This document shows positions 17,317-52,635 of a DNA stretch of 64,000 nt, in pieces. The stretch covers positions 3,753 through 67,752 of the forward strand of contig DCVQ01000027.1 of the NCBI GenBank assembly GCA_002328745.1, in the 5' to 3' direction. A model generated the notes under the pieces. It was given only the letters and a program-made list of their open reading frames with translations. It was not told the origin of the DNA and searched no databases. The number at the start of each line of letters is the position of its first letter. Within the stretch, counting starts at the first letter, position 1. Position numbers and translations under genes: made by a program. The stretch comes from Actinobacteria bacterium UBA2184 (GTDB lineage: Bacteria; Actinomycetota; Coriobacteriia; Anaerosomatales; Anaerosomataceae).

Positions 17317-18232
17317 TCCTTCCTGCGCAGCAGCGCCCTCCGTCGGCTGGCGTGCGTGCCTCCAGCGCGCGCGTGCTGCCGCGCTGCACCCGCTTGCCCC
17401 GTTGGCGGTGGTCGCTCCGCTGATCGTGATCTTCTGGATGACCGAATCCTTCGTGCATGTGGTGTTGTTCGACGCGGACTTCTGGGGCCAGGTCTTCCAT
17501 CCGGCGCCGCACGAGTTGTGGATGCGCGGACTGATGACTCTGGTGATGTTGCTGCTTGCGCTTGCGGGAAGTGCTCTCTCGCGGGAGCGCGCGCGGCGCA
17601 TCGAGCAGCTGGAATCGTACCAGCAGCGCCTCCGCGAGCTGACCGCACGTCTGGCGTACGCTGACGGCGACGAGCGTAGGGACCTCGCGAGCAGGCTCCA
17701 CGAAGGGGTGAGCCAGCAGCTTGCGGCGGCCCGCGTCTACCTCGGGAGCGTCGAGGCGACCGATGGCGAAGGACGCGAGGCGCTCGACCGGGCGGGCACG
17801 ATCCTGGAGTCCTCCCTCGCCGAGTGTCGCGAACTGGCCGGTGAGATCGCGCCTCCCGGTCTCGAGCACTACGGTCTGGGGGCCGCCCTCGAAGCGCTTT
17901 CGGCGCGGGTGAGACGCCGGACCGGAGCACGGGTGGAGATCACGGGAGCGGAGTCCGCGTTCCCGCTTGCGGCGGACGTTCAGCGGGTGGCGTTCCAGGT
18001 GATCGCCGAGATCATCGAATCCGCTGTGGCCGACCGGACCGTCCGGGCGCTCGCGCTCGAGTTCCGGCGCGAAGACGGCGCTCTCGCGGTGGGATTCCAC
18101 TGGGACGCACGAGGGCTCACGGACTACTTCTCGGTGCAGGAGCGCATCGGTGCGGTCGGCGGTCGTCTGTGCCTGGAGCCGTCGGGCCCGGACTCGCGCC
18201 TCACGCTGAGGGTGCCGCTCCCGGCCGCCTGA
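17288..18232 (+). CDS. HisKA_3-type sensor kinase homologue with degenerate ATP-binding domain
   Basis: Two N-terminal TM helices. H-box DERRDLASRLHEGVSQQL. The C-terminal domain lacks the N-box Asn and the DxGxG/GxG motifs (reads EIIESAV, FHWDARGL, FSVQERIGAVGG). The start is uncertain; GTG 17288 overlaps the RR gene by 29 nt. Confidence 0.6.
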   Translation: MKASRPLKTDPSCAAAPSVGWRACLQRARAAALHPLAPLAVVAPLIVIFWMTESFVHVVLFDADFWGQVFHPAPHELWMRGLMTLVMLLLALAGSALSRERARRIEQLESYQQRLRELTARLAYADGDERRDLASRLHEGVSQQLAAARVYLGSVEATDGEGREALDRAGTILESSLAECRELAGEIAPPGLEHYGLGAALEALSARVRRRTGARVEITGAESAFPLAADVQRVAFQVIAEIIESAVADRTVRALALEFRREDGALAVGFHWDARGLTDYFSVQERIGAVGGRLCLEPSGPDSRLTLRVPLPAA

Positions 18233-18380
18233 GTCCCGGGCGCGCCTTTCCTTACCACCTCTCGGGGATTCCCTGACGGGGTCGGGGCGTTTTCCGATGC
18301 ACCGCGCCCGGCCGGGCGCCGACCATCGTAGCGGGGAGACTCACTGCCGGCGTGCCGGCACCGCACACGATTGGACCCGG

Positions 18381-20357
18381 ATGTCCGACCGCACAGCCAA
18401 GACGAATGCCTCGCAGCCCGGCGTGTTGCTCGATGCTGCGGCCGAGGCGCTGATCCTTCTCGATACCGGCGACGTCTCGAGCGTGGCCGAGCTCATCGAG
18501 CGCGTGGGCGCGGTCGCGTGTGCGTTCGGCGATACCCTTCCATCCGATCATCCTGCCGAACGCGCACGTGCCGCAGCCGCCGCCCTCGCCGACGGAGACC
18601 TGTCCGCGCTGGCGCCGCTCGAGGCGGCGCTGATCGCGATCAAGGGCGAGATCGACCGGGCGGCTTCCGGCAAGGGCCGGCCCCGCGCCACGAAGCCCCC
18701 TCCGGCGGCCCCGGCCGAACAGGGTGCATCCGCGGCCGATGCCGCGACCGCGGCGACCGAAGCCGGGGCCATGCCGCTCGCCGGCGACGAGGAGCTGCTC
18801 CGTGACTTCGGCGTGCGTGCGGCGGAGCATCTCGACGATGCGGACGAGCGACTCCTCAGGCTCGACGCCGATCCGACCGACCGAGAGTCCATCGACGCGG
18901 TCTTCCGCGCGTTCCATACGATCAAGGGCATGGCCGGCTTCCTCGCGCTCGACGCAATCTCGCACGTTGCCCACGAGGCCGAGGGGATACTCGCCGCCGT
19001 CCGGGCAGAGGGGAACGGTCTCACCGAGCAGGCGGTGCGCGGCCTGCTCATCTCGGTGGACACCATGCGTATCCTCGTCGCCGAGACGAGCGGCGTGGGT
19101 CATACGCGGCCCGACGACGCCCCGGCGACCGGCACGGTCCCCGGCGGCGGGAGCGCTTCCGGGGCGCCCGTCCGCTCGGCAACCGGGGGCACGGTGCGCG
19201 TTGGAGAGGAGCGGCTGGACGCGCTTCTCGACGCGATCGGGGAGCTCGTCATCGGTGAGTCGATGGTCTCGGCGTCGGTTCGCGGCGGTGCGAGCGTGGC
19301 CGAACTCGGGACGCGCCTCGACCAGCTCGACAAGATCACGCGCGAGCTGCAGCAGATGGCCACGTCGCTTCGGATGGTGCCGTTGCGGGCGGTGTTCCGG
19401 CGCATGGCGCGGCTGGTGCACGACGTGTCGGACAAGTCAGGCAAGCGCATCGAGCTGGTCACGACCGGCGAGGACACCGAGCTCGACAAGACCGTGGTCG
19501 ACCGCATCGAGGACCCGCTCGTCCACGCGCTGCGAAACGCCATCGACCACGGCGTCGAGACCGCCGAGGAGCGGCGCGCGGCGGGCAAGCCCGAGGTCGC
19601 CCGCATCGAGCTTCGCGCGTTCCACTCGGCGGGATCCATCCACATCGAAGTCGCCGACGACGGGCGCGGTCTCGACGCCGAGCGCATCCGCGAGCGCGCG
19701 GTGACCGCCGGCGCCATCTCCCCCGACGACGCCCTCGACGGCAGGTCGCTGCTCGACGTGCTGTGCATGCCGGGCTTCTCCACCGCCGAGGTGGTCACCG
19801 ACGTCTCCGGCCGCGGCGTGGGCATGGACGTGGTGCGCCGCACCGTCGAGGAACTGCGTGGCCGCCTCGAGGTGGCCAGCGCTCCGGGCCGGGGCACCAC
19901 GTTCAGCATCCGGCTGCCCGTGACCCTTGCGATCATCGACGGCATGGTGCTGCGCGTCGGCGTCGACCGGTTCATCGTCCCGCTGCTCGCCATCGAGCGC
20001 TCCATCCGGCCGACCGCCGCGCAGATCACCACGATCGCGGGTCGCGGCGAGATGGTCGCCGCCGAGGGCGAGCCGCTGCTCCCGCTGGTGCGCCTGCACC
20101 GGCTCTTCAGCATCCCCGACGCCGAAGAGGACCCGTCCTCGGCCGTTGTGGTGATCGTCAGCGATGGCGGCGTGCGCGCCGGGCTGCTCGCATGCGAGCT
20201 GCTCGGCCAGCAGCAGACCGTCATCAAACCGCTCGGCGACGGGCTTCCGGACATGCCCGGGATCGCCGGCGGTGCCGTCATGCCGGACGGACGCGTGGGG
20301 CTGATCCTCGACGCGGCCGGGATCGTGAGATCCGCCAACGATGGAGGAGGTGAGTGA
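18381..20357 (+). CDS. cheA: chemotaxis histidine kinase CheA
   Basis: Hpt motif FRAFHTIKGMAGF. Dimerisation and HATPase domains (HALRNAIDHG, DDGRGLD, GRGVGMDVV). C-terminal CheW-like domain. About 140 aa of N-terminal extension precede Hpt. The start at ATG 18381 is plausible but not proven. Confidence 0.88.
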   Translation: MSDRTAKTNASQPGVLLDAAAEALILLDTGDVSSVAELIERVGAVACAFGDTLPSDHPAERARAAAAALADGDLSALAPLEAALIAIKGEIDRAASGKGRPRATKPPPAAPAEQGASAADAATAATEAGAMPLAGDEELLRDFGVRAAEHLDDADERLLRLDADPTDRESIDAVFRAFHTIKGMAGFLALDAISHVAHEAEGILAAVRAEGNGLTEQAVRGLLISVDTMRILVAETSGVGHTRPDDAPATGTVPGGGSASGAPVRSATGGTVRVGEERLDALLDAIGELVIGESMVSASVRGGASVAELGTRLDQLDKITRELQQMATSLRMVPLRAVFRRMARLVHDVSDKSGKRIELVTTGEDTELDKTVVDRIEDPLVHALRNAIDHGVETAEERRAAGKPEVARIELRAFHSAGSIHIEVADDGRGLDAERIRERAVTAGAISPDDALDGRSLLDVLCMPGFSTAEVVTDVSGRGVGMDVVRRTVEELRGRLEVASAPGRGTTFSIRLPVTLAIIDGMVLRVGVDRFIVPLLAIERSIRPTAAQITTIAGRGEMVAAEGEPLLPLVRLHRLFSIPDAEEDPSSAVVVIVSDGGVRAGLLACELLGQQQTVIKPLGDGLPDMPGIAGGAVMPDGRVGLILDAAGIVRSANDGGGE

Positions 20358-20890
20358 GCGTGATCCAAACGGAGACGGAGACGGGAGCCCTGGCAGGCAA
20401 GTACCTGACCTTCGCGCTCGCCGATGAGCACTACGGCATCGAGATCCTGCGCGTGCAGGAGATCGTCGGGCTGCTCCCGATCACGCGCGTGCCGCGACTG
20501 CCCGATTTCGTGGCGGGTGTGGTGAATCTGAGAGGCAAGGTCATCCCCGTGGTCGACCTGCGGCAGGCCTTCGGGATGCCCCCGGTCGAGCTCAACGACC
20601 GGACGTGCATCGTCATCGTCCGCACGACGCGGTCTGACGGCCGCACTACCGTCATGGGCGCGCTCGTCGACGAGGTCTCGGAGGTCGCCGACCTGCCGTC
20701 GTCCGCGATCGAGGAGACACCCGAGTTCGGCGTCGGCGTCGATACGTCATTCGTGAAAGCCATCGGACGGCTGGAGGACCGTGTCGTGCTGCTGCTCGAT
20801 GTGGACCTCGTACTGTCCGGTCAGCAACTGGAGATCGTCGAGCGCGCCGCAGCGGCCGCCGAACGAGCGCGTACTGAAGGGGGTTCGTGA
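20354..20890 (+). CDS. cheW: chemotaxis coupling protein CheW
   Basis: 178 aa. [22 protein letters not shown]...[20 protein letters not shown] overlap with the cheA stop, with GGAGGAGG upstream. Confidence 0.9.
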
Positions 20891-22545
20891 TGATCAAGAA
20901 CTGGAGTCTTGGGCTCAAACTGGCAGGCGGGTTCGGCATCGTTGCGCTGCTGCTCGTCATCGTCGGCGGCGCCGCGATGCTCGACATGCGCACGATGAGC
21001 GGCCTCGCGGCCGAGATCACCGAGGATGTCGACATCGCCGACAACATCATGGAGGCGAAGTTCGAGGTGGAGAAGCAGCGGCTGCTGCTGATGGAGGTCA
21101 TCCAGTCGTCGGACGCGGCCGAGATCGAGGCGCTCGCGAGCGATCTCGAGGATTCGAACAAGGTGTTCGACGAGCTGATCGATGCGGCCGTCGCGTCGCT
21201 CGAAGAGGATGCCAGGGGCGATGAGGTGGCCGCCGATGTGCTCCCGCAGGCGCGCGAGGCGGCAGCGGTGCATGACGACGAGCTCGAACCCGTGATCGCG
21301 GAAGCCGTCACGCTCGCGGCGAGCGCCACCACGGAGGAAGCGCGCGACGCTATCGGGGAGCAGCTCGCGGAGCTGGACGAGACGGCCGACGCAGCGGGCG
21401 AGCACATGGTCGGCCTGATGGAGGAAGTCGAGCTCGGCACGGACACGATGGTGGACAACGCGTCCGTCGCGCTCAAGGCGACCACGTCCCGCGCGCTTGC
21501 GCAGTCCATCATCCTGCTCGTGGCCGGCGTTCTTGTCGCCGCAGGTGCCGCGTGGTTCAACACCCGGGCCATCACCTTGCCGATCAACCGCATCATCGCG
21601 GGCCTCACCGCCGGCGCCGAGCAGGTCTCGAGCGCGAGCAATCAGGTGGCCTCCGCAAGCCAGCAGCTGGCCGAAGGCGCGAGCGAGCAGGCCGCCAACC
21701 TCGAGGAGACGTCCTCTTCGCTCGAGGAGATGTCGGGCATGACGCGTCAGAACGCCGACAACTCCCGTCAGGCGGACGCCATCAGCCGCGAGGCGCAGGG
21801 CGCCGCGCAGCGCGGCGTGGACGCGATGAGCCAGATGTCCGCCGCCATCAAGGGCATCAAGGACAGCTCGGACGCCACCGCACGCGTCATCAAGACGATC
21901 GACGAGATCGCCTTCCAGACCAACCTCCTGGCCCTGAATGCGGCCGTTGAGGCCGCTCGCGCCGGAGACGCCGGCAAGGGCTTCGCCGTCGTGGCCGAAG
22001 AGGTCCGCTCGCTCGCGCAGCGCTCGGCAGAGGCCGCCAAGAACACCGCGGTGCTCATCGAAGGCTCGCAGGCAAGCGCCGAGCAGGGCGTCAACGTGAC
22101 CGCCGAGGTCCAGAAGACGCTCGAGCAGATCGTCTCCACCGTCGACCGGGTCACGATGCTCGTGGGCGAGATCGCTGCCGCGAGCCAGGAGCAGGCCCAG
22201 GGCATCGACCAGGTGAACATCGCGGTCGCGCAGATGGACCGGGTGACGCAGGCCAACGCTGCCAACGCCGAGGAGTCCGCCTCCGCGAGCGAGGAACTCT
22301 CGGCCCAGGCTCGCGAGCTCGGCGAGATGGTGACGCTGCTCATCAAGACGGTCCGGGGCGCCAACGCCGCGGTCGGCACGGGGTCCGCGCGGGTTGCCGC
22401 CAGCCCCTCGGCCGGCACGCTCAACCGTGTTCACGCAGCGAGCGCCGGTGCACGCGTGCATGCGGCGGCTGTGGCGCGCAACGCCCGGGCGGTCGACCCC
22501 GAAGAGGTCATCCCGCTCGACGATGAGGACCTGGCCGACTTCTAG
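20887..22545 (+). CDS. methyl-accepting chemotaxis protein (4-helix-bundle sensor)
   Basis: Two TM segments. Hallmark hairpin [43 protein letters not shown]-terminus ...[11 protein letters not shown]. The start overlaps the cheW stop. Confidence 0.9.
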
Positions 22546-22566
22546 GCCGGTGGAAGCGACGAGACA

Positions 22567-23382
22567 GTGCCTGCGATGATGGACATACGGAAGAAGACGT
22601 TCGACCGCCTGGTCGAGATCGTGTACGAGACGAGCGGCATCTCGCTCGGCCCGCGCAAGCAGGCGCTCGTGTGCGCGCGCGTGAGCAAGCGCATGCGGGT
22701 GCTCGGCATCGGCTGCTTCGACGAGTACCTCGCGTATCTCGAGGAACATCGTGGCGAAGTCGTGGGCCTGCTCGACGCGATCTCGACCAACGTGACGAGC
22801 TTCTTCCGCGAGCCGCACCACTTCGACTTCATCGCCGAAGCTGCGGGGCTGTGGTACGAGTCGGGTCAGCGGCGCTTCAGATTCTGGAGCGCCGCGAGCT
22901 CGACCGGCGAGGAGCCGTACTCGCTCGCGATGGTGGTGAAGGAGGCGCTGCCGTTCCCGGATGTGGACCTGCGCATCCTGGCGACCGACATCTCCACCGA
23001 GGCCCTGGCCGTCTGCGAGGACGCCGCCTACGATCTCGGCAGGATGGAACCGGTGCCTGCCGCGCTTCGGGACCGCTGGTTCTCGCCGGTACGCGGCACC
23101 GCGCAGTCGCTGTGGCAGGCGAAGCCCGCGCTGCGCGACGCCGTCGTCTTCCGGCGCATGAACCTCTCGACGCCGCCGTTCCCGATGACGGGGCCGCTCG
23201 ACGCCATCTTCTGTCGCAACGTGATGATCTACTTCGACGACGTGGTGCGGCGCCGCCTCCTCGAGGAGTGCAACCGGCTGCTCAAGCCCGGTGGGTTCCT
23301 CGTCGTGGGACACGCGGAATCGCTTGCGGGCATGATCGCCGACTTCAAGTACGTTCGGCCTTCGATCTATCGCAAGGCATGA
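22567..23382 (+). CDS. cheR: chemotaxis protein methyltransferase CheR
   Basis: 271 aa. TNVTSFFREPHHF, FWSAASSTGEEPYSLAM, IFCRNVMIYF. Confidence 0.9.
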   Translation: MPAMMDIRKKTFDRLVEIVYETSGISLGPRKQALVCARVSKRMRVLGIGCFDEYLAYLEEHRGEVVGLLDAISTNVTSFFREPHHFDFIAEAAGLWYESGQRRFRFWSAASSTGEEPYSLAMVVKEALPFPDVDLRILATDISTEALAVCEDAAYDLGRMEPVPAALRDRWFSPVRGTAQSLWQAKPALRDAVVFRRMNLSTPPFPMTGPLDAIFCRNVMIYFDDVVRRRLLEECNRLLKPGGFLVVGHAESLAGMIADFKYVRPSIYRKA

Positions 23383-23383
23383 A

Positions 23384-23878
23384 GTGGACGTCGTCGTCGG
23401 CATCTCGGAGTACGCGGTGTCGTCCGATCCGGACGACACGCTCATCACGTACTCCCTGGGCAGCTGTGTCGGTCTCGTGCTGCACGATCCCGTGGCGGGC
23501 ATCGGCGGGCTGCTGCACGCGATGATGCCCGTCTCGACCGCCGATCCCGGGAAGGCCGCGATGACGCCGGCGATGTACGTCGACACCGGTGCCGCCCGCA
23601 TGCTGCAGGAGATGTTCGACCGGGGCGCGACGCGGCCGAACCTGTCCGCGTGGGTCGTCGGGGCGGCGAACCAGCTCGATTCCGACAACCTGTTCCGTAT
23701 CGGCGCGCGCAACCACGCCATCGTGCGCAAGGTGCTCTGGAAGAACGGGATCCTCATCGCTGACGAGGAGACCGGTGGGTCGATATCGCGAACGGTCACC
23801 CTCGAGGTGGGGGACGGTCGCGCGTTCGTGAAGTCAAGCGGAGGCGTCCGCGAGCTGCGGCCGCCGAGGACGAGATAG
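23384..23878 (+). CDS. cheD: chemoreceptor glutamine deamidase CheD
   Basis: 164 aa. TYSLGSCVGLVLHD (catalytic Cys), GGLLHAMMP, NIGARN-like FRIGARN. GTG lies 1 nt after the cheR stop. Confidence 0.85.
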   Translation: MDVVVGISEYAVSSDPDDTLITYSLGSCVGLVLHDPVAGIGGLLHAMMPVSTADPGKAAMTPAMYVDTGAARMLQEMFDRGATRPNLSAWVVGAANQLDSDNLFRIGARNHAIVRKVLWKNGILIADEETGGSISRTVTLEVGDGRAFVKSSGGVRELRPPRTR

Positions 23879-23886
23879 GAACGGCG

Positions 23887-25787
<1,901 letters not shown>

Positions 25788-25854: not shown

Positions 25855-27687
25855 ATGGGCCTGAGCGACAAGAAACGCCTCGAGCATCTCGAGTCCATCG
25901 TCAATGCGCTCGACGGCGTCGTCTGGGAGTTCGACTGGTCGACGGGGGCGTTCACCTGGGTGAGCGCAGGGGCGGAGCGTCTGCTCGGCTATCCGCTCGC
26001 CGACTGGCTGGTACCCGGCTTCTGGACCGGGCATCTCCATGATGAGGACCGCGACTTCGCGGTCTCGTACTGCATCGCGGCCACGGAAGACGGGCTCGAT
26101 CACGAATTCGAGTACCGCATGTTCCACGCGGATGGCACCATACGGTGGCTGCGGGATGTGGTGTCGGTAGACCCCGTGCTGCGCATGGACGGCCCGCTAC
26201 GCGGAGTGCTCGTCGACATCACGGCTCAGAAGACCGCCGAGGAGTCGGCGCGGCAGTCGCAAGAGGTCTACCAAACGCTCGTGGAGCTCTCCCCGTACGC
26301 GATCTTCGTGATCGACGCGGGCGAGCGCTTCGTGTACGCAAACGACGCGGCGGCAGAGATGCTGTCCGCGCCCGCGCCCGAGGCGCTCCGGGGTATGCGC
26401 ATCTCGGCGCTCTTCCCCCGCGATGACGAAGGGGCTGCGGCGCTCGAAGAGGCGCGTACCGCCGCTGCGGCGCTGCTTCGGCACACCCCGGGCGACGCGA
26501 CTTCCCGCTCGAAGACGACGCGTGCGCCGATCCTCACGCTCGCCGGCCGCCGGATCGAGATGCAGCGCACGGCGGCCACCATCACCTTCGCAGGCGAGCC
26601 GGCGCTGCTCGTGATCGCACGCGACATCACTCGCGAGCTCGAGGCGGAGCGCGCGCTTCGCGAACAGCACGACTTCCTCGGTCACCTTCTGACGATGCTC
26701 GATTCTGGCGTCGTGGTGCTCTCCGGCGAACCACCGCTCGTCGTGCAGATCAACGAGCCTGCCGAGCGGCTGCTCGGCTGGGAGCCGGGCGAGCTCGTCG
26801 GCGAGAGCGCGCGGGTCCTGTTCAGCGGCGATGACGACTGGCGCGACTTCAACGAAAGGCTCCGACACGATGACCTGCCCGTGGGCGGCATCGCGGCTGA
26901 GACGCCGATGGCGCGCCAGGACGGCTCGTGTTTCGATGCCGAGATCGCGGTGCGCCCGCTCGGGATCAGGCCGGGAGAGTACATCGCCATCTTCCGTGAC
27001 GTGACCGAGAGGCTCGCGATGGAGCGGGAGGAGCGCGAGCACCAGAAGCGCCTGAGCGCGCTCATGGCCGAGGTGACCGATGCCGAGGACCGGCAGAGAC
27101 GTCAGCTGGCCGAGGAGCTGCACGATAGGGTAAGTCAACCGCTCGCCGTCTCGCGCCTGCACCTGGCGGGAGCCGTGAAGGACGACGGGTCCGCTGATCC
27201 GGCCGCCATCGAAGCGGCATCCGAGATGCTCGAAGAAGCGATCAGTCAGGCGCGCGCACTGACCACGGCTCTCTACCCGCCCGTTCTTCGCGAGCTGGGT
27301 CTTGGGCCTGCGCTGGGGTGGCTTGCCGAGGAGCTCGAGCGGACCTACCGGCTGCAGGTGGAGGTGGCCCTGCCCGAGAAGGAGCCACGGCTCGAGGAGG
27401 AGGCAGCGTCGGTCCTCTTCCGTACCGCGCGGGAGCTGCTTGTGAACGTGGCGAAGCACGCGGGCGCCACACAGGCGTGGATGAGCCTCGACGTGGTCGC
27501 CGGATCGGTGGTCCTCACGGTCGCTGACAACGGCCACGGGTTCGAGTCCGGCGCCGAGACGGGCTTCGGCCTGTTCAGCATCCGGGAACGCCTGCCGCAC
27601 CTCGGCGGCAGCGTCGAGATCGAGAGCGAGCTCGGTTCGGGCGCACGGATCACGGTGTCGGTGCCCGAGCAGGCTCGGGACGCCTGA
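25855..27687 (+). CDS. cytoplasmic triple-PAS sensor histidine kinase (HisKA_3 + HATPase_c)
   Basis: 610 aa with no TM segment. Three PAS-like blocks. H-box LAEELHDRVSQPL. Intact ATPase domain (ELLVNVAKHA, ADNGHGF, GFGLFSIRERL). AGGAG SD. Confidence 0.88.
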   Translation: MGLSDKKRLEHLESIVNALDGVVWEFDWSTGAFTWVSAGAERLLGYPLADWLVPGFWTGHLHDEDRDFAVSYCIAATEDGLDHEFEYRMFHADGTIRWLRDVVSVDPVLRMDGPLRGVLVDITAQKTAEESARQSQEVYQTLVELSPYAIFVIDAGERFVYANDAAAEMLSAPAPEALRGMRISALFPRDDEGAAALEEARTAAAALLRHTPGDATSRSKTTRAPILTLAGRRIEMQRTAATITFAGEPALLVIARDITRELEAERALREQHDFLGHLLTMLDSGVVVLSGEPPLVVQINEPAERLLGWEPGELVGESARVLFSGDDDWRDFNERLRHDDLPVGGIAAETPMARQDGSCFDAEIAVRPLGIRPGEYIAIFRDVTERLAMEREEREHQKRLSALMAEVTDAEDRQRRQLAEELHDRVSQPLAVSRLHLAGAVKDDGSADPAAIEAASEMLEEAISQARALTTALYPPVLRELGLGPALGWLAEELERTYRLQVEVALPEKEPRLEEEAASVLFRTARELLVNVAKHAGATQAWMSLDVVAGSVVLTVADNGHGFESGAETGFGLFSIRERLPHLGGSVEIESELGSGARITVSVPEQARDA

Positions 27688-27703: not shown

Positions 27704-28006
27704 TCAGTGCCGGATGCGGAAGCCCTGCAGCCCTCCCGGCGCCTCCCACCGCACCTCGACGCTCTCCACGACCGCGTGAGGCGGACCCTCGTGGCACCAG
27801 GCGATGGCGGATTCGACCGCCGCCGCCGGGCCCTCGAACACGGCCTCGACGCCCTGCGCGGTGTTGCGGACCCAACCGGCCAGACCCCGCGAGCTTGCTT
27901 CTCGCGAAGCGCTCGCGCGGAAGTAGACACCCTGCACGCGACCGCCGATATGCACGCGGGCGCGCACTGTCTCGCTGCCCGAAGGACCGCGCTCCGTCTG
28001 TGGCAC
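27704..28006 (-). CDS. acyP: acylphosphatase
   Basis: 100 aa. VHIGGRVQGVYFRASASREASSRGLAGWVRNTAQGVEAVFEG is the acylphosphatase signature. GTG start with GGGAG SD. Confidence 0.85.
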   Translation of the reverse strand: MPQTERGPSGSETVRARVHIGGRVQGVYFRASASREASSRGLAGWVRNTAQGVEAVFEGPAAAVESAIAWCHEGPPHAVVESVEVRWEAPGGLQGFRIRH

Positions 28007-28071
28007 GATGGCTCCCGCGTCCGAATTGGATATCTACTTCCATGTCTACCCGTCAGCGAAGGAGCGCCGCC

Positions 28072-29538
28072 ATGCAGATCACACCGGACACCAGGATCCA
28101 CGACCTTCTGCAGGAGTACCCGTCGATCAAAGCATGGCTGATCGCGTACGCTCCCGCATTCGAGAAGCTCGGCAACCCGGTGGTGTACAACACGGTGGGG
28201 CGCGTGGCCACGCTTGAAGCCGCCGCGAAGATGGGCGACGTCGACGTCGCCGTCTTGATCGACGCGGTCCGCGAGCGGGTGGCTATGGCATCGATCGCCG
28301 CCGAGGAGACCGCGGGCGCGGCCCCGCGACTCGACGACGACGAGCGGGCCCGCCGCCAGCAGGTCCTGAAGGGCCTCATCCGGGAGCTGCACGCGGGCGC
28401 CAGCATCGAGTCGGTCAAGGCGCGCTTCGACGAGCTCGTGCGCGATATCGATGCGGCCGAGGTGGCGATGATGGAGCAAGCGCTGATCGCGGAGGGCATG
28501 CCTGTGAGCGAGGTGCAGCGCCTGTGCGACGTGCACGTCACCGTCTTCAAGGAGTCGCTTGACGCGGGTGAGGCTGCGCCGGTCGCCGCATCGCATCCGA
28601 TCGACGCCTACCTGCGCGAGAACGAGGTCGCCTCGGCCGTCGCCGGTGAGCTGCGGGCGGAGCTGGCCGCACTCGCCGCCGAGCCTGGCGCGCTCGCGCG
28701 TATCGCCGATGGGCTCGTGCGCCTCTCGGAGATCGCGGTCCACTACCGTCGTAAGGAGATGCAGCTGTTCCCGCTGCTCGAGCATCACGGCATCGAAGGG
28801 CCGACCAAGGTGATGTGGGCGCTCGACGACGACATCCTGGCGATGATCGGCCGCGACCGCGAGGCCGCGGAGTCGGGGGACGCGGCTGCCGTCGTGGAGT
28901 CGCTGCCCGCAACGCTCACCGCCGTGGACGACATGGTGTACAAGGAAGAGAAGATCCTCTTTCCGGCCGCCCTGCAAGCGCTCACGGAGGCCGAGTGGGA
29001 GGGGATCGCGGCGGGAGACGGGGAGATCGGCTACGCCTGGATCTCCGGCCCCGAGCGTGGGGAGGCGACGGTCGCGGGAGCGCGCGCGGTGGCGGCCGCG
29101 GCGGCGGGTGACGCGTCGGCGCTGCCGGCGGGTGACGCTCCGATCGTCCTTACCACGGGCGCTCTCACAAGAGAACAGGTCGATCTGATGCTCGGCGTGC
29201 TTCCCTTCGACTTGAGCTACGTGGATGAGAACGACCGGGTGCGGTTCTACTCGGAGGGGGAGCGCATCTTCCCGCGGTCGCCGGCGGTGATCGGGCGCGA
29301 GGTCCGCAACTGCCACCCGCCGGCGAGCGTGCATAAGGTGGAGGAGATCCTCGCCGCGTTCAAGGCAGGCGAGAAGGATACCGCCGATTTCTGGATCCAG
29401 ATGCGTGGTGCGTTCCTGCACATCCGCTACTTCGCGATGCGGGATGCCGACGGCACGTACCGCGGGTGCCTCGAGGTGGTGCAGGACGTCACGCGTATCC
29501 GCGCGCTCGAGGGCGAGCGCCGCATCGTCGATTGGTAG
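28072..29538 (+). CDS. DUF438 protein (DUF1858 + hemerythrin-like + PAS)
   Basis: 488 aa from ATG 28072 (AAGGAG SD). N-terminal ITPDTRIHDLLQEYP (DUF1858/ScdA_N-like). Hemerythrin-like His/Glu-rich helices. C-terminal FYSEGERIFPRSP...RNCHPP...YRGCLEVVQDVT PAS. Confidence 0.8.
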   Translation: MQITPDTRIHDLLQEYPSIKAWLIAYAPAFEKLGNPVVYNTVGRVATLEAAAKMGDVDVAVLIDAVRERVAMASIAAEETAGAAPRLDDDERARRQQVLKGLIRELHAGASIESVKARFDELVRDIDAAEVAMMEQALIAEGMPVSEVQRLCDVHVTVFKESLDAGEAAPVAASHPIDAYLRENEVASAVAGELRAELAALAAEPGALARIADGLVRLSEIAVHYRRKEMQLFPLLEHHGIEGPTKVMWALDDDILAMIGRDREAAESGDAAAVVESLPATLTAVDDMVYKEEKILFPAALQALTEAEWEGIAAGDGEIGYAWISGPERGEATVAGARAVAAAAAGDASALPAGDAPIVLTTGALTREQVDLMLGVLPFDLSYVDENDRVRFYSEGERIFPRSPAVIGREVRNCHPPASVHKVEEILAAFKAGEKDTADFWIQMRGAFLHIRYFAMRDADGTYRGCLEVVQDVTRIRALEGERRIVDW

Positions 29539-44034: not shown

Positions 44035-44529
44035 TCAGTCTATGGAGGGCGGGAGCGGCCGCTCGTCGGCGAACCACTCGGCCTCGAAATCGCCCTCGGC
44101 GATCGTACCGATCGGCAGACGGAGGTAGCGGCCTTTGGCCTCGACGGCCACGCTGCCGTCGTCGAGCAGTATCTCGCCGCTGCCCTCGAAGATGCGTCCC
44201 GAGTCCTTCGTGATGCGTCCATGTGCGACGATCTCGCCATCGAGCGGCACCGGCTTGCGGTAGCGCACCGTGAGCTCGATGGTGACCCCCCAGGCGTCGG
44301 TGTCGGAGGTGTTGATGGCCCGGCCGATGGTCTCGTCGAGGATGGTCGACGCGATGCCGCCGTGCAGACGGCCCGGGTAGCCCTGGTGCTGTTCGCGTGG
44401 CGTGAAGACGCCGACGAGCTCCCCGTCCTCCAGTTCGAAGAACCGGGCGTGCAGCCCGGCATCGTTCTCCACGCCGCAGACCATGCACATGCGGCTGACG
44501 TTCTGTGCCGAGCGGATCGCGCGCGTCAC
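44035..44529 (-). CDS. PaaI/hotdog-fold thioesterase
   Basis: 164 aa. CMVCG N-terminal motif, GRLHGGIASTILDETIG, hotdog core. GTG start with AAAGGAAAG SD. Confidence 0.8.
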   Translation of the reverse strand: MTRAIRSAQNVSRMCMVCGVENDAGLHARFFELEDGELVGVFTPREQHQGYPGRLHGGIASTILDETIGRAINTSDTDAWGVTIELTVRYRKPVPLDGEIVAHGRITKDSGRIFEGSGEILLDDGSVAVEAKGRYLRLPIGTIAEGDFEAEWFADERPLPPSID

Positions 44530-44642
44530 GGCTTTCCTTTCGTCCGGAGTGCGACCATTGTACGCCGAGGGGGACCGCAGGGCGGGAGCCGCGGCCCTCG
44601 CTCGGGGACAATCCGGGTGACACGCGTTCGAGAGGGGGCCGG

Positions 44643-45113
44643 GTGGGCCACGAGGAACACATGCGGCGCGCGATCGCGCTCAGCCGGGAGAAGATGCGCG
44701 ACGATGAGGGCGGGCCGTTCGGCGCCGTGATCGTGCGCGACGGTGTGATCATCGCCGAGGGCTGGAACCAGGTGACGGGGCACAACGACCCCACGGCGCA
44801 CGGCGAGATCGTCGCGATCCGCGAAGCGTGCCGCGCGCTCGGCACCTTCTCGCTCGAGGGCTGCACCATCTACACCAGTTGCGAGCCGTGCCCGATGTGT
44901 CTCGCCGCCATCTACTGGTCGCGCATCGATCGCGTGTTCTACGCCAACACCGCCGCCGACGCCGCGACGATCGGCTTCGACGACGAGCGGCTCTACCGTG
45001 AGCTGGCGCTGCCGCCCGACGCGCGCAGCCTGCCGTCCGAGCGGCTGCTGGCTGCCGAGGCGCGGGCGGTGTTCGACGAGTGGCTTGCCGACCCCGACCG
45101 GGTGCCGTACTGA
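44643..45113 (+). CDS. CDA-fold nucleoside/guanine deaminase
   Basis: 156 aa. GPFGAVIV, HGEIVAIREA (HAE-type), TSCEPCPMCLAAIYWS (PCxxC). Confidence 0.85.
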   Translation: MGHEEHMRRAIALSREKMRDDEGGPFGAVIVRDGVIIAEGWNQVTGHNDPTAHGEIVAIREACRALGTFSLEGCTIYTSCEPCPMCLAAIYWSRIDRVFYANTAADAATIGFDDERLYRELALPPDARSLPSERLLAAEARAVFDEWLADPDRVPY

Positions 45114-45955
45114 TGGCCATCCCCGACGGCCTGCTGGTCTGTCCGCAGTGTCGCGCCCCGCTCGTCGCCGCCGGCGCCACGATGCGCTGCGCAGCGGGCC
45201 ACGCGTTCGATATCGCACGGCAGGGCTACGTGAACCTGCTGCCGGGCGACGCCCGTCCGGGCACCGCGGACACGCCGGCGATGGTGGCCGCGCGCGCGGC
45301 GTTCCTGTCGTCGGGGCACTTCGGTCCGATCGCGGACGCGGTTGCCGACGCGGTTGCCGCATCGCTCGGCGAGACGCCCGGCTGCATCGCTGATGTCGGA
45401 GCGGGGACCGGCTACTACCTCGCCACGGTCCTCGAGCGGGCGAGCGACCGCACGGGCGTGGCGGTCGACATCTCGAAGCATGCCGCCAGGCGCGCCGCGG
45501 CGGCGCACCCGCGGATCGCTGCGGTCGTCTGCGACGCGTGGGCCTCGCTGCCGCTTCCCGACGCCGCCGCAGCGGTGGTGATGGACATCTTCGCGCCGCG
45601 CAACACGTCCGAGTTCGCGCGGGTGCTGCACCCGGACGGAGCGCTGGTGGTGGTGACTCCGACGGCCGACCACCTGCGCGAGCTCGTGCAAGCGCTCGAC
45701 CTCGTGACGGTCGATCCCGAGAAGGAGGACCGCCTCGAGCGTTCGCTCGGCACGGCCTTCGTACGAACGGGAACCGATTCGGTGGAGGCTCCGCTTGTGC
45801 TTGCCCCGGCCGATATCGCGACAGTGGTCGCGATGGGGCCGAGCGCCCGTCACGTGTCGCCCGACGCCCTCGCTCGTGGCGTCGCGGACCTCGGGGACTG
45901 GATCGAGACCCGGATCGCGGTACGCGTGCGCGTGTGGCGCCGCCGGAACCGATGA
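45113..45955 (+). CDS. RlmA/RrmA-like 23S rRNA (guanine-N1) methyltransferase
   Basis: 280 aa. Zn-ribbon CPQCRAPL...CAAGHAFDIARQGYVNLLP collinear with E. coli RrmA. SAM motif DVGAGTGYY. TGATG overlap with the upstream stop. Confidence 0.8.
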   Translation: MAIPDGLLVCPQCRAPLVAAGATMRCAAGHAFDIARQGYVNLLPGDARPGTADTPAMVAARAAFLSSGHFGPIADAVADAVAASLGETPGCIADVGAGTGYYLATVLERASDRTGVAVDISKHAARRAAAAHPRIAAVVCDAWASLPLPDAAAAVVMDIFAPRNTSEFARVLHPDGALVVVTPTADHLRELVQALDLVTVDPEKEDRLERSLGTAFVRTGTDSVEAPLVLAPADIATVVAMGPSARHVSPDALARGVADLGDWIETRIAVRVRVWRRRNR

Positions 45956-46092
45956 GCGTCGCGGTCTCCACGCGGCACGCTTTCTGCAACGCGTGCAGGG
46001 TGCCCTGCAGACATGCCGTTCGTTCGCCGGATGGTGTCTTGGTCACACAGACGCGATGACGCGACCGTTCGTCGGAAAGAACCGTCCCGGCG

Positions 46093-46121
46093 TTGGGTGA
46101 ACTATCGATTCTTGGTACTAT
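46093..46121 (+). promoter_or_regulatory. candidate sigma70-type promoter (TTGGGT-17 nt-TACTAT)
   Basis: Read directly, in a lower-GC spacer about 50 nt upstream of ATG 46174. Confidence 0.35.
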
Positions 46122-46173
46122 CCGTGCGTTGTCCAGGTGGACTTCCTGCATCCTTCCGGCAAAGGAGCACTCA

Positions 46174-48214: not shown

Positions 48215-49126
48215 TCAGCTGCCTGAGAGCTGCTTCAGCGTGGTCGAAACCACGTGGATGAAGTCCGAGAAGAACTTCTCGAAGGAGCCGATCTCGTCGT
48301 TCGTGCCGTCGGACACGAACTCCGCGCTGAAGTCGCCACCGGCGACCCGCATGGAGATGTCCTGCATGCTCTCGGTCATCCGGCGAAGGCGCCGTAGTAC
48401 GAGCAGGTCCATCATCATGCCGATGATCAGCGTCGAGACCAGCAGTGTGACACCCACCACGGCGAGCGTCGACAGCATCGACCTGTTCGCTCCGTCGGCC
48501 TGGGCCGACACGTCCTCGATGACGTACACAACGCCCAGGGCCTCATCGTCGGCGCCGTACACGGGGAAGACCGCATGCCCCTTGCTCGATGAGTCGGTGC
48601 TCCACTTGATGGTCCAGAAGTCACCCTCGCCGGTCATGCCCTCGTGACAGGTCTTCGTGCACGAACCGATCTCCACACCGATGGCCTGGCTGTTCTCCGA
48701 GACCTCGGTAGCGGGGCGCTCGAACTGCATCTTGTCCGCGGCCGCATCATCTGTCGCGAAGAGGAGGGCGTAGTTCTCGCGCTCTGCCCACGCCGAGCTC
48801 TCGCCGAGCTCCTCGCGCGCTGCCGCGTACGTGCCCTCGTCGGCAACGGCCTTGTCGAGCAGGAAGCCGTACTCGTCGCCGGTGACAGCCTTCATGCCCT
48901 CAAGGATGCGCTGCACTTCCCCGGGGTTCCCGACCGGATCGACCGCTACGCCCTCACCCTTGATCTGCTCCCATGCCGCGAGGCTTTCGACTCCGGCCTC
49001 CGCAGCCGTGGAGTCGATGCTCTTGGAGTACGACTGGTGAAGGTACACCACCACGGCTATCGCGCCCAGAAGATTCACGATAACCACCGTCGCCAGGATG
49101 CGCGTTCTCACTGACATGTTCTTCAT
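48215..49126 (-). CDS. membrane protein: extracytoplasmic CxxCH (haem c) sensor-like domain + TM + HAMP, no output domain
   Basis: 303 aa from ATG 49126 (alternatives 49180 and 49117). TM1, about 190 aa outside with the single motif CTKTCH (48644-48661), TM2, then a HAMP domain (RRLRRMTESMQDISMRVAGGDFSAEF...DEIGSFEKFF). Ends in a double stop. Confidence 0.75.
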   Translation of the reverse strand: MKNMSVRTRILATVVIVNLLGAIAVVVYLHQSYSKSIDSTAAEAGVESLAAWEQIKGEGVAVDPVGNPGEVQRILEGMKAVTGDEYGFLLDKAVADEGTYAAAREELGESSAWAERENYALLFATDDAAADKMQFERPATEVSENSQAIGVEIGSCTKTCHEGMTGEGDFWTIKWSTDSSSKGHAVFPVYGADDEALGVVYVIEDVSAQADGANRSMLSTLAVVGVTLLVSTLIIGMMMDLLVLRRLRRMTESMQDISMRVAGGDFSAEFVSDGTNDEIGSFEKFFSDFIHVVSTTLKQLSGS

Positions 49127-49196: not shown

Positions 49197-52184
49197 CTAC
49201 GGTGCCAATGTGTGACAACTCAGGCAGATGGATGGCTCGGGCACCGGGCTGCTGTCAGCGCTGCAGGCCGGAGACGTTGACGGCTGCTCGGTATCATCGG
49301 ATTGAGTCGCATCGCTCAGGACAGGTGCTGCTGTCCCTGAGATCTCCGTAGAAACCGCAGAACCGGCCTGCGTATCGGGGGGTGTGTTCGCTGCGATCGA
49401 TGCCGACAGGGTAGGCACGGGTCCTGCGGGGATCACGCACGAAGCCGACCGGCTCGCCGCAGTGCTGTGGCAGTTCGCGACGGATCCGTCGGTGCCGCCG
49501 CATGAGACGGTGAGATGTCCGCCAACGGTGTGACAGCCCGCCTCGGTGCATGCATGCGCGTCGACGGTCGTGGGCGTGTCCGGCGTCGGATCGGGGATGC
49601 TGCGGACATCGAGCGCGGAATAGCCTGGGGGCGGCGATGGGTTGTCATGACAACCGCAGGCACCCTCCTGGGGCAGTCCATCGTTGCCGATCTCAACGCC
49701 CGTGTGGACCGTGGCACTGTCGGGGTGGTAGGTGTCCGGAGGATCGGCCGTCGCCATGTGGCAACTGAGCGTCGGGTCGTTGCCGCCGCATCCGATGATC
49801 ATCGACGGTCCGCCGGCGACATGGCAGCCCGGCGTGCCGTAGCAGCCGCCCACGCCGCTATGGAGCGTCGACAGGCGCGTCGTGGTGTGGCAGCCGGCGG
49901 TGACACAGGTGCCGGGCGTCGGCACGTTGTCGGCGCTGTACTCCACGCCTATGTGGTGGTTCGGGTTCTTCGTGTGGTAGCTGATGCTGCGCAGGTGGCA
50001 GCTGAGTGCCGGGTCGGTGCCGCCGCATCCGATGATCATCGACGGTCCGCCGGCGACATGGCAGCCCGGCGTGCCGTAGCAGCCGCCCACGCCGCTATGG
50101 AGCGTCGACAGGCGCGTCGTGGTGTGGCAGCCGTCCTTCACGCAGGAGCCCGGCGTCGGCACGTTGGCCGTGCTGTACTCCACGCCTATGTGGTGGTTCG
50201 GGTTCTTCGTGTGGTAGCTGATGTTGCGCAGGTGACAGCTTAGGGCAGCGTTATCGGCGTTACCGCCGCAGCCCAGTACGCCGGTCGGCCCGCCCTCGAC
50301 GTGGCAGCCCGGGATCGCGCATCCGACCTCGTGGTGCGTTTCGTAGACGTTGACCGTGACATGACAGCCGTCTTTCACGCAGGAGCCCGGCGTCGGCACG
50401 TTGGCCGTGCTGTACTCCACGCCTACGTGCACGGTCGCGAAGTCGTCGTGCTTGTTGGCATCGCTCGCGGTGTGGCACGCCGGCGTCCCCGCGCCACCGC
50501 CGCACGTCATGTAGGTCGGACCTCCCGCAACGTGGCAGCCCGCCGTGTAGCAGACTCCGACCTCTTCGTGCAGATCGCGCACATCGGCGGTGGCGTGGCA
50601 TCCCGGTCTCACGCATCCGGTCTCAGATACCTGTCCGTCGTGGCCGATCTGCGTGGCTATGTGCGCCGCGTCAGCGGTCGCGTGGCGCGAACTCGCGGTG
50701 TGACACGAGGTGCCCGACTGGTCGTCGGTGCCGCCGCACGTCATCGTGCGCGATCCTCTGATGTCACCCGTGTTCGAGTGGCAGCCGCTGATGGTACAGC
50801 CGATCTCGGCGTGCAGGACGCGCACGTCCGCGGTCGTGTGGCAGCCCGGCTTCGCACAGCCCGTGGACGAGACGTGCCCCTCGTGGTCGATCTGAGTGGC
50901 CACGTGTGCACTGCCGATGGCACCGTGGATCGAGTCCCCGTGGCACGTCGCGCATGCCGCGGCGGTGTCGCTCGCTGGCCAGTCGCCCATGACTGCGGCG
51001 ACGGTCGTCTCGTTCTTGTTGTGGCAGCCGAGGCAGGTATCGCCAGCGATGACCGAGTTCCGCCGGGCGTGCTCGATCCCGATGTCCGTCGTGTGGCACG
51101 ATCCGCACGTCACGCTCACACCGCTCGTGCGATCGGTGTAGGTCGCCGATGCCTGCGAGCGGCTCTCCGGCGCATGCACGACATCGTCGTCGGTGTGGCT
51201 GTATTCGTCGTTGAGATAGTCCGGATGGCAGTTGCCCTCGCCGGTGCCGCACGCGGTGACGACCGGGGTCTTTGGCTCGGCCTCGAAGTCGTGGCATGCG
51301 GGCTCGCCCTCGGCCGCCGAACCCGAGCATGTGGCGGGCTTGTCCGGGTGGAGCGCGTGCAGGTCGTTGCCATCGTGGCATCCTGCGCCGGTCGTGCCGC
51401 AGCTTGCGGTGCCGCTTGCCTCGACCGAGCCGGAGATCACGTCGGAGGCGTGCATCGGCGCGCGCACCGTCTCTTGGTGGCAGTCCTCGCAGCGGTGGTC
51501 CTCCCAGTCGGAGAGGACCTGGTCGAGCGCCCCCGACTGCTCGTCGTTGTGGCACTCGACGCACCCGATCTCGGTGCCGTAGTCGCCTCCGTCGACCTCG
51601 TTCACCACGGAGTGCGCGGTCTTGAGATCGCGCGAGTGGCAATCGGCGCAGGTCGCCTTTGCTTCGCCGTCGGCCGCCGTCCTCACTACCTGTTCGAAGT
51701 CCGTGCCGAGGGCGGTGTGCAGCGATTCGCGGTAGTGTCCCTTGGGCCACGCGTCGGCGAGCGTCACGCAATCGGAGACGCCCTCCATACTGCCGTCGTG
51801 GCACCCGGTGCACTCGTGCTGATTCGGGGCGTGGCAGGGGATGCATCCGACGCCCGTGTAGTCGTGGCACACAGTGCACGCGGTGTCGGGATGGTACTTG
51901 TTGAAGTCGCTCAGGCCCTCATCGAACCCGTGGCAGCCGTCGCCCGAGTTCGTGCAGCCGCTCTCGCGACGCGCGCTGTAGTCGCTGGCGGAGGTGAAGG
52001 TGTGGACGGTCTCGGTGGGAGGGTTCCAGCCTGCGGCAAACGCAAGACCGCCGATCAGGACCACAGCGATCCCGATCTTGCCCTTGCGGGCCCTGATCCA
52101 CTGTGCGAGTCCCTCGCGAGCCGGCTGCGGCGTTCCGGCGCCGTAGGACGCCGTTCCGCCGCTGGGATGCTTCGTGCCCCTCAT
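49197..52184 (-). CDS. N-terminally anchored giant multihaem c-type cytochrome (10 CxxCH + 21 C-x(4-10)-CH motifs)
   Basis: 995 aa. TM anchor KIGIAVVLIGGLAFAAGW. Canonical motifs: CTVCH, CIPCH, CTGCH, CADCH, CVECH, CEDCH, CGSCH, CLGCH, CATCH, CLSCH. The C-terminal half consists of tandem modules. GGGGGG SD before ATG 52184. Confidence 0.85.
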   Translation of the reverse strand: MRGTKHPSGGTASYGAGTPQPAREGLAQWIRARKGKIGIAVVLIGGLAFAAGWNPPTETVHTFTSASDYSARRESGCTNSGDGCHGFDEGLSDFNKYHPDTACTVCHDYTGVGCIPCHAPNQHECTGCHDGSMEGVSDCVTLADAWPKGHYRESLHTALGTDFEQVVRTAADGEAKATCADCHSRDLKTAHSVVNEVDGGDYGTEIGCVECHNDEQSGALDQVLSDWEDHRCEDCHQETVRAPMHASDVISGSVEASGTASCGTTGAGCHDGNDLHALHPDKPATCSGSAAEGEPACHDFEAEPKTPVVTACGTGEGNCHPDYLNDEYSHTDDDVVHAPESRSQASATYTDRTSGVSVTCGSCHTTDIGIEHARRNSVIAGDTCLGCHNKNETTVAAVMGDWPASDTAAACATCHGDSIHGAIGSAHVATQIDHEGHVSSTGCAKPGCHTTADVRVLHAEIGCTISGCHSNTGDIRGSRTMTCGGTDDQSGTSCHTASSRHATADAAHIATQIGHDGQVSETGCVRPGCHATADVRDLHEEVGVCYTAGCHVAGGPTYMTCGGGAGTPACHTASDANKHDDFATVHVGVEYSTANVPTPGSCVKDGCHVTVNVYETHHEVGCAIPGCHVEGGPTGVLGCGGNADNAALSCHLRNISYHTKNPNHHIGVEYSTANVPTPGSCVKDGCHTTTRLSTLHSGVGGCYGTPGCHVAGGPSMIIGCGGTDPALSCHLRSISYHTKNPNHHIGVEYSADNVPTPGTCVTAGCHTTTRLSTLHSGVGGCYGTPGCHVAGGPSMIIGCGGNDPTLSCHMATADPPDTYHPDSATVHTGVEIGNDGLPQEGACGCHDNPSPPPGYSALDVRSIPDPTPDTPTTVDAHACTEAGCHTVGGHLTVSCGGTDGSVANCHSTAASRSASCVIPAGPVPTLSASIAANTPPDTQAGSAVSTEISGTAAPVLSDATQSDDTEQPSTSPACSADSSPVPEPSICLSCHTLAP
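49749..50222 (-). repeat. two tandem 237-nt (79-aa) coding repeat units inside the cytochrome gene
   Basis: 49782-49895 is identical to 50019-50132 (114 nt, compared by eye). The rest of the unit is near-identical. More diverged copies continue to about 50906. Confidence 0.85.
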
Positions 52185-52211
52185 GATGGCCCCCCGGAAG
52201 TTCGGCGACGC

Positions 52212-52415
52212 CTAGTCGAGTCTCAGTCCGAGTATGTCCTGGGCCGCCTGCTGCAGATTCCGAAGCTTCTCGGCGTCATCGGGATCTTCAGGCTTGATGA
52301 GCGTCACGATGAAACCTACGCGCATGGCGATGGCGCCGCGCGTCTTGAACACATCGAGGTTGTTGCGCTGAATGTGCTCCTCGATGCGTTGCGCGTAGTC
52401 GTAGAGCTTCCCCAT
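52212..52415 (-). CDS. 67-aa hypothetical protein, first gene of the cytochrome operon
   Basis: MGKLYDYAQRIEEHIQRNNLDVFKTRGAIAMRVGFIVTLIKPEDPDDAEKLRNLQQAAQDILGLRLD. GGAGGTGGGGA SD before ATG 52415. The stop lies 27 nt before the cytochrome start. Confidence 0.6.
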   Translation of the reverse strand: MGKLYDYAQRIEEHIQRNNLDVFKTRGAIAMRVGFIVTLIKPEDPDDAEKLRNLQQAAQDILGLRLD

Positions 52416-52635
52416 CGATCCCCACCTCCGCAGACCGGATGCATACATGTTCGGCATTCGGGCCCAAAATATTTAGCGAAACGCGCCAGCGCTGCATGCC
52501 GGAGCGCGTGCCTCCCCCGTACCCGCTAATAATCACCGAATCTCGGTCCCAGCGCTAGTGTGGGTGTTCACAAAGCCGAACCGTGGGGAGAAACGGCCCG
52601 GTGTGTGCGCGTGACCGCCGTGATACCGTGCTGCT

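Follow-up and report, generated by a model that had tools for sequence, protein, structure and literature searches.

We analysed a 64,000-nucleotide stretch of DNA from Actinobacteria bacterium UBA2184 (contig DCVQ01000027.1, positions 3,753 to 67,752; hereafter the window), in which the minus-strand open reading frame (ORF) at 49197..52184 is a complete coding sequence for a protein of 995 amino acids with 67 Cys and 71 His. A regular-expression scan of this protein found 32 C-xN-CH sites, that is, two Cys separated by N residues with a His directly after the second; 10 of them have the canonical spacing CxxCH and 22 are non-canonical, and together they use up 64 of the 67 Cys. Residues 419-914 consist of six tandem units of about 79 amino acids, the sixth interrupted by an insert. 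We propose that these are six head-to-tail copies of a trihaem c-type unit, and that the protein is probably a wire-like, exported cytochrome of about 32 haems matured by System II, a reading that rests on the sequence comparisons set out below. The units are arranged as follows:

50688..50930, minus strand: unit 1, residues 419-499, with the layout H-x6-H...C-x4-CH...LH...C-x4-CH...CGG-x7-CH (the last being C-x10-CH)
50454..50687, minus strand: unit 2, residues 500-577, motifs x4/x4/x8
50217..50453, minus strand: unit 3, residues 578-656, motifs x4/x4/x10
49980..50216, minus strand: unit 4, residues 657-735, motifs x4/x5/x8
49731..49979, minus strand: unit 5, residues 736-818, motifs x4/x5/x8
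49443..49730, minus strand: unit 6 (degenerate), residues 819-914, CGCH (C-x1-CH), an insert, then x4/x9

The repeat was recovered from both the DNA and the protein. Tandem Repeats Finder reported a period of 237 nucleotides (79 amino acids), in one array of 2.0 copies (93% identity) and another of 2.8 copies (84%), and a profile of the unit matched five complete copies (residues 419-501, 500-580, 578-654, 657-734 and 736-812) and a sixth in two pieces (residues 819-847 and 872-911). The general layout of the unit is H-x6-H, about 15 residues, C-x4-CH, eight residues, H, four to six residues, C-x4/5-CH, about ten residues and C-G-G-x5-7-CH. Within residues 443-905 the scan counted 18 C-xN-CH sites (nine x4, two x5, three x8, one x9, two x10 and one x1) and no CxxCH, whereas 5000 shuffles of the repeat segment that kept its composition gave 1.6 sites on average and never more than 8. 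A preliminary description of this DNA, made from the letters alone, had placed tandem modules of about 79 residues at 49467-50906, each with three Cys...Cys-His sites and none of them CxxCH. Its interval corresponds exactly to residues 427-906 of the ORF, and the modules and their sites are as it had said; its further claim that the polymer is made exclusively of expanded motifs holds for the repeat region of this protein, but neither for the whole protein, with its 10 CxxCH, nor for the family.

Units 4 and 5 are 81% identical in amino acid sequence and show 30 differences in 237 nucleotides in a codon comparison, which marks unit 5 as a recent duplicate of unit 4. The near-identity of the two shows that the copy number is still changing, and for the same reason the exact number of units could be an assembly variable. 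The ratio of non-synonymous to synonymous differences per site (pN/pS) between them is 0.61, but few sites enter this value and the differences gather at the unit boundary, so that it supports no conclusion; nor does a comparison of units 3 and 4, which was out of register. In unit 6 the C-x4-CH is replaced by a contracted CGCH (residues 844-847, window 49644-49655), followed by a Pro-rich insert of about 25 amino acids (residues 848-871, window 49572-49643). A C-x1-CH site is also found in eight homologues (P0001, P0003, P0005, P0010, P0022, P0024, P0026 and P0028). A single unit modelled with AlphaFold2 (AF2) reached a predicted local distance difference test score (pLDDT) of 83.6 and a predicted template modelling score (pTM) of 0.74. 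The ORF has a GC content at third codon positions (GC3) of 0.84, which is typical for the real genes of the window, and the identical 995-residue protein has been called on 5 independent metagenome contigs from ENA and Joint Genome Institute (JGI) samples.

Among 5.8 billion proteins searched there are 138 homologues, whose named sources are uncultured Coriobacteriia/Actinomycetota metagenome-assembled genomes (MAGs) and which are labelled 'hypothetical' or 'cytochrome c3 family'. Motif and unit counts rest on 120 of the 138, those that were listed. All 120 carry expanded sites (x4, x5, x6, x7/8 and x10) beside CxxCH. With about two Cys for each motif in these proteins, hardly any Cys is left outside a C...CH site. 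The unit profile found 1-7 copies per protein in 118 of these 120 homologues, and giant cytochromes of 2-3 thousand amino acids from the same lineage also carry the unit. It is a rare element: 1.84 billion cluster representatives, searched exhaustively with the profile, yielded 43 proteins only.

The column statistics of the unit, taken from 242 complete copies in those 118 homologues, are close to invariance. The six Cys and the three His that follow them are conserved at 99-100%, the CGG that begins with the fifth Cys shows no variation, its Cys and both Gly being at 100%, and the spacing of motif 3 is confined to 7-10 residues across the family. Loss of the first Cys of a pair, one of the findings that the preliminary description had named beforehand as refuting its reading, is seen in a single unit of the 242, at residues 593-671 of P0047, where motif 1 is AANATCH, so that this reading is not refuted. 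Exactly three further His are conserved per unit, as the bis-His trihaem stoichiometry proposed in the preliminary description requires: those at columns 7 and 38, both candidates for distal ligands, are kept in 98% of the units each, and the third, lying 5-9 residues (mostly 7) upstream of column 7, is present in 238 of 239. Where columns 7 and 38 hold something other than His, the residue is Met in 4 of 8 cases; Met is the other common axial ligand of haem. With three proximal and three spare His in every unit, the needs of three bis-His haems are satisfied, and the stoichiometry expected of c7/class III cytochromes, three bis-His haems per ~70-80 residues, is present at the level of sequence only.

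The expanded sites could be connected to ordinary ones in two ways. Firstly, a canonical CxxCH takes the place of motif 2 in P0013, P0027 and P0034 (CAMCH, CTACH and CTDCH, respectively), in units that are otherwise typical. Secondly, distant metagenomic relatives (P0135, P0136, P0139, P0143 and P0146, which we call the A3 set) contain 3-7 copies of a tandem repeat of 62-64 residues with C-x4-CH, I/L-H, CxxCH and CxxCH, and hhalign aligned the unit with 13 of these repeats at 94.9% probability (E 4.6e-8, 54 columns), with all three sites in register. In the A3 repeats as in the unit, P-x-x-C-x4-CH is followed by a hydrophobic stretch with His at its end, by sites 2 and 3 and then by boundary His residues. 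The A3 repeats differ from the unit in that sites 2 and 3 are canonical; in the unit, site 2 is longer by 2-3 residues and the first Cys of site 3 (that of CGG) lies 5-7 residues further upstream. Because CxxCH can be swapped in at motif 2 and the A3 repeats align in register, the expanded sites are, judging from these alignments, homologous to standard haem c sites. The A3 proteins themselves are unannotated except for weak Cytochrome_C7 matches, and an hhalign comparison of the A3 repeat with haems III-IV of PpcA (48%, 21 columns, PpcA sequence entered by hand) is too weak to use.

Searches against known families and structures gave little in the units. Pfam and NCBIfam scans of the whole 995-residue protein produced no relevant family match (Pfam E up to 10), P0121, a protein with little besides units, is likewise without a match in Pfam, and the PDB sequences contain no significant match to the units, whether searched with the unit profile, the whole protein or the family profile. 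The best PDB match of the family profile, NrfA (E 0.0013), falls in a C-terminal domain that is absent from the 995-residue protein. The remark in the preliminary description that a polymer made exclusively of expanded motifs was not one it recognised is in line with these null results in Pfam, NCBIfam and the PDB, and the confident match to a known non-haem repeat family that it had named as a refutation did not turn up. In the homologues, Cytochrome_C7 and MtrC-domain matches fall either within the canonical N-terminal domain or within domains at the C-terminus that are lacking here, those of Pfam Cytochrome_C7 (PF14522) at about residues 176-239, outside the units. The general hallmarks of a multihaem c-type cytochrome, in the form of 32 sites with invariant His columns, are present. 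Separately, P0004 has a Pfam DNA_ligase_IV match (E 2e-11) over 13 residues at the start of one unit (residues 695-707), which is almost certainly a spurious short-motif match.

Two candidate families were rejected. Kinship of the unit with cytochrome c7 found no backing at the sequence level (hhalign against PpcA 1%, with the PpcA sequence again entered by hand), and the c7 and class III profiles (PF14522 and PF02085) have no match on the 995-residue protein at Pfam E values up to 10, so that of the 'c7-like' label in the preliminary description the analogy in size and stoichiometry stands and the kinship does not. The Geobacter CxxxxCH...CXXCH family PF09698, which the searched Pfam library includes, matches neither the protein (E up to 10) nor the A3 relatives (E up to 0.01).

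Set beside known systems, the units as we read them resemble c7/c3 cytochromes and the polymerised c7-type proteins GSU1996 and GSU0592 of Geobacter in having ~24-27 residues per haem, and the c7-type polymers also in having three bis-His haems per ~70-80 residues, little secondary structure and a head-to-tail haem chain. Tetrahaem c3 itself has C-x4-CH at two of its four sites. The units differ from c7/c3 in that no sequence or profile relationship is detectable and every site is expanded, with a spacer of 7-10 residues at the third; since there is no demonstrable kinship, they are like GSU1996 only in size, stoichiometry and tandem order. PF09698 (GSu_C4xC__C2xCH, TIGR01904) is likewise a repeated short unit with C-x4-CH plus further haem sites in large extracellular cytochromes, and differs in that its profile fails to match our protein or its A3 relatives. 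The CX15CH of MccA/SirA, the CX11CH and CX17CH of Wolinella and the CX14CH of OmcZ, a term used in the OmcZ filament paper PMC9473688, share with the third site the order of two Cys, with a long loop between them, and then a His, and in the CX15CH of MccA both Cys bind haem. These long-spacer sites, however, are known to occur once per protein, for a special or catalytic haem, and those of MccA and SirA depend on a dedicated lyase (CcsA1; SirEFGH), whereas the 7-10-residue spacer of the unit recurs six times here and up to seven times in homologues, beside twelve short expanded sites.

OcwA of Thermincola potens and OmhA/SmhB of Carboxydothermus are comparable as exported multihaem proteins of monoderm hosts and proposed carriers of electrons across the wall; unlike in our protein, tandem all-expanded units are unreported in them, and it has no significant match to solved cytochromes. 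In the open-access literature on Coriobacteriia cytochrome motifs we found no description of the unit, and the in vitro CcsBA paper contains no spacing-variant terms. Atypical haem sites and their lyases are among the subjects treated in PMC6976685, and a 2024 survey accepts CXCK, CX2CK, CX3CH, CX4CH, CX11CH, CX15CH and CX17CH as non-canonical sites (PMC11492766).

Outside the units, the protein has the following parts:

52029..52109, minus strand: basic stretch followed by a hydrophobic helix (KGKIGIAVVLIGGLAFAAGW), residues 26-52, seen in the sequence, the AF2 model and the family consensus
50931..52022, minus strand: N-terminal multihaem domain, residues 55-418, with 9 CxxCH, 3 C-x6-CH and 1 C-x10-CH
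49230..49442, minus strand: low-complexity linker rich in Ser, Thr, Pro, Ala and Asp, residues 915-985, with pLDDT <50 in the model
49212..49226, minus strand: canonical C-terminal CLSCH, residues 987-991, its His at least 90% conserved in the family alignment

The full-length AF2 model places helices at residues 26-32 and 34-52, and an AFA motif in this N-terminal segment is kept in the family consensus; residues 26-52 are predicted to be a Sec signal peptide or an N-terminal membrane anchor. The export feature expected of multihaem c-type cytochromes, a basic stretch with a hydrophobic helix at the N-terminus, is thus visible in the sequence and in the AF2 helices. In the N-terminal domain the Cys/His columns are invariant in a 49-sequence family alignment, and residues 260-332 form a diverged copy of the repeat unit, with motifs x6/x10/x6 and a weak profile match (E 0.003). 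Diverged N-terminal copies were also matched by the profile in P0061, P0068 and P0100.

The cytochrome gene is the middle member of a conserved trio, with the gene of a 67-residue protein upstream and that of a 303-residue HAMP protein downstream:

52212..52415, minus strand: gene for a 67-residue cytoplasmic protein (MGKLYDYAQRIEEHI.../MGKLYDYAQRIEEHIQRNNLDVFK...), immediately upstream in about 30 loci and strongly conserved
48215..49126, minus strand: gene for the HAMP partner, 303 amino acids in the public calls, 321 amino acids from the first start (ORF to 49180)

The trio is kept although the flanking genes differ between loci. The HAMP gene follows the cytochrome gene in 19 of the 19 family loci with clustered ORFs, and its family comprises 119 proteins, all of about 303 amino acids, that are co-distributed with the cytochrome. 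The partner is composed of a transmembrane helix, an outside domain of ~200 residues, a second transmembrane helix and a HAMP tail with no output domain. Its only two Cys form a C-x3-CH, an arrangement found in 27 of 28 orthologues, and the partner is therefore likely to be a monohaem protein that has a non-canonical site of its own and acts as a sensor or docking protein. The 67-residue upstream protein has no Pfam or other family match.

Many loci of relatives add a NapC/NirT-type cytochrome, which is a candidate quinol dehydrogenase, an FKBP-type isomerase and a MarR regulator, and in many a second multihaem cytochrome of ~740 amino acids is inserted between the cytochrome and HAMP genes; in the window none of the NapC/NirT-type, second cytochrome, FKBP and MarR genes adjoins the trio. 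Examples of the added genes lie at:

L010, 3692-5104
L010, 11678-13900
L008, 14839-15288

With regard to maturation, related MAGs carry genes for ResB (PF05140) and CcsA (PF01578) beside giant paralogous cytochromes rich in expanded motifs, among them the chromosome OW818687.1, which carries a member of the present family as well. The giant paralogues have 2755-3068 amino acids, 139-184 Cys and ~39-44 non-canonical C-xN-C[HK] sites each (C-x3-C[HK] included):

L035, 7988-19370: giant paralogue adjoining CcsA, with ResB
L047, 1746-12901: giant paralogue adjoining CcsA, with ResB
L061, 3461-16120: giant paralogue adjoining CcsA

This arrangement hints at a maturation system encoded alongside cytochromes in which non-canonical motifs abound. 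A CcsA search on the 2.5-Mb chromosome OW818687.1 returned the query's own locus only, among its top 120 matches at identities of at least ~49%, a range that leaves divergent paralogues beyond its reach. In L035 the giant paralogue is followed by TPR and NHL-repeat genes.

According to the mechanism that we propose, each unit would hold three haems, thioether-bound at C-x4-CH, C-x4/5-CH and C-GG-x5-7-CH, with the His after the second Cys as proximal ligand and with the two His at the start of the unit (H-x6-H) and the His of the 'LH' between motifs 1 and 2 as distal ligands; all three haems would be bis-His, at ~27 residues per haem. Sec would export the protein via its N-terminal basic stretch and hydrophobic segment, and the ~32 haems would most likely be attached by System II (ResB/CcsA) at the outer face of the membrane. 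A continuous haem chain may then run from the 13-site N-terminal domain through the six trihaem units into the disordered linker with its final CLSCH site, and would carry electrons between the cytoplasmic membrane and the outside, through the wall of these monoderm Coriobacteriia (extracellular electron transfer), presumably outward. The number of units, 1-7 among the homologues, would set its reach, and the putative monohaem HAMP partner may sense or dock the chain. The NapC/NirT-type and second multihaem cytochromes in the loci of relatives, together with the C-x3-CH of the partner, support a role in electron transfer. Coriobacteriia with multihaem cytochromes, both cultured and known from MAGs, have been tied to Fe(III) reduction or electrode uptake (PMC9686372, PMC7943316), and the cultured Anaerosomatales and the electrode-associated Coriobacteriaceae MAG described there lend the proposal ecological plausibility.

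We also put forward, tentatively and as a possibility that we would not favour over its negation, that System II of this lineage routinely matures Cys...Cys-His sites with 1-10 intervening residues, through a relaxed ResBC/CcsBA or an unrecognised dedicated factor, and that the unit is a new minimal block that has been duplicated to tune a wall-spanning wire.

Several observations weigh against the trihaem wire. No ccs/res maturation genes lie within the 64-kb window, and no quinol dehydrogenase is encoded beside the cytochrome gene in it. The long-spacer sites of MccA and SirA require dedicated lyases. The full-length AF2 model is poor, with an overall pLDDT of 58.5 and the units at 70-85, and Foldseek returned 0 matches in the PDB with either the single-unit model (E up to 10) or the full-length one, a null that we regard as uninformative and as no proof of a new fold, haem-less and loop-rich models being poor queries. 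The terms CX5CH, CX6CH, CX8CH and CX10CH occur in no paper of the open-access literature searched, and CX9CH in one unrelated paper only. Finally, the A3 relatives have the first Cys of motif 3 at -3, which leaves the CGG Cys of the unit without a matching column among canonical sites.

These last two points also speak for a different explanation, in which both C-x4/5-CH sites are haem-bound and the haem at C-GG-x5-7-CH is either held by a single Cys, in the manner of AxxCH, or absent, with the CGG Cys serving a structural or redox role: the terms CX8CH and CX10CH are used by no paper of that literature, and CX9CH by the unrelated one only, and the first Cys of motif 3 in the A3 relatives is out of line with the CGG Cys. 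Single-Cys sites are moreover tolerated in the family, since the unit of P0047 persists without the first Cys of its motif 1. We nonetheless consider partial occupancy of this kind unlikely. The CGG Cys and both Gly are kept in all 242 units and the spacing stays within 7-10 residues, the CGG Cys has no free-Cys disulfide partner, since the Cys counts match the CH sites pair for pair, and two-thioether sites with long spacers exist elsewhere, CX11CH, CX15CH and CX17CH being listed in PMC11492766.

That the repeats bind no haem at all, and instead form a Cys/His-rich stalk of Zn/Cu-binding or disulfide-knotted spacers holding the N-terminal cytochrome domain off the cell, would fit the absence of any haem-family profile match to the unit and a repeat region in which non-standard spacing alone occurs. 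This is very improbable in our judgement, given that the His directly after the second Cys is invariant, that three homologues carry a canonical CxxCH where motif 2 would be, that the unit is homologous, at the 94.9% probability quoted above, to a repeat with two CxxCH, that His gives way to Met at putative distal ligand positions, and that six His accompany every six Cys in the arrangement that three bis-His haems need. A chance pattern, an assembly artefact or a decaying pseudogene, for which one might cite the many long spurious ORFs that high-GC DNA yields on both strands and the ease with which assemblers could miscount the near-identical units 4 and 5, is refuted for practical purposes by the identical protein on 5 contigs of independent ENA and JGI samples, by 138 homologues with the motifs conserved in 120 of the 120 listed, by the GC3 of 0.84 and by 18 sites against a shuffle maximum of 8.

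On our reading the protein would be a multihaem cytochrome c whose repeated trihaem unit has expanded spacing at every site, and no new category of system. The CxxCH rule is central to cytochrome c biogenesis; the accepted exceptions are few and are single sites, and those with long spacers need dedicated lyases. A wire of trihaem units raises the question of how haem is attached to stretched sites and, if the reading is true, would let the family serve as a natural test of the sites that System II synthases can accept. Counting haems by CxxCH only would undercount such proteins, giving 10 instead of ~32 here. A compact unit with ~27 residues per haem and a variable copy number could also serve as a model for electron wires that cross the monoderm wall and for the engineering of haem wires. 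Only uncultured Coriobacteriia/Actinomycetota carry the family, and this group is increasingly tied to subsurface iron cycling and electrode communities.

With respect to the remainder of the window, its GC content is high (64-73%) and spurious antisense ORFs are abundant. Long ORFs rich in Arg, Pro and Ala (up to 742 amino acids; for example 44526-46151 on the minus strand and 50301-52529 on the plus strand) lie opposite or overlapping real genes, and are typical high-GC artefacts and not genes. A complete chemotaxis cluster, with CheA, CheW, a methyl-accepting chemotaxis protein (MCP), CheR, CheD and CheY-CheX, occupies 18297-24735 on the plus strand and is preceded by a LuxR-type two-component pair at 16591-18232. 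Further along, a plus-strand gene at 27895-29538 encodes a 547-residue protein with DUF1858, DUF438, hemerythrin and PAS_10 domains, possibly a sensor of redox state, O2 or NO, and adjoining it is the gene of a triple-PAS histidine kinase at 25855-27687.

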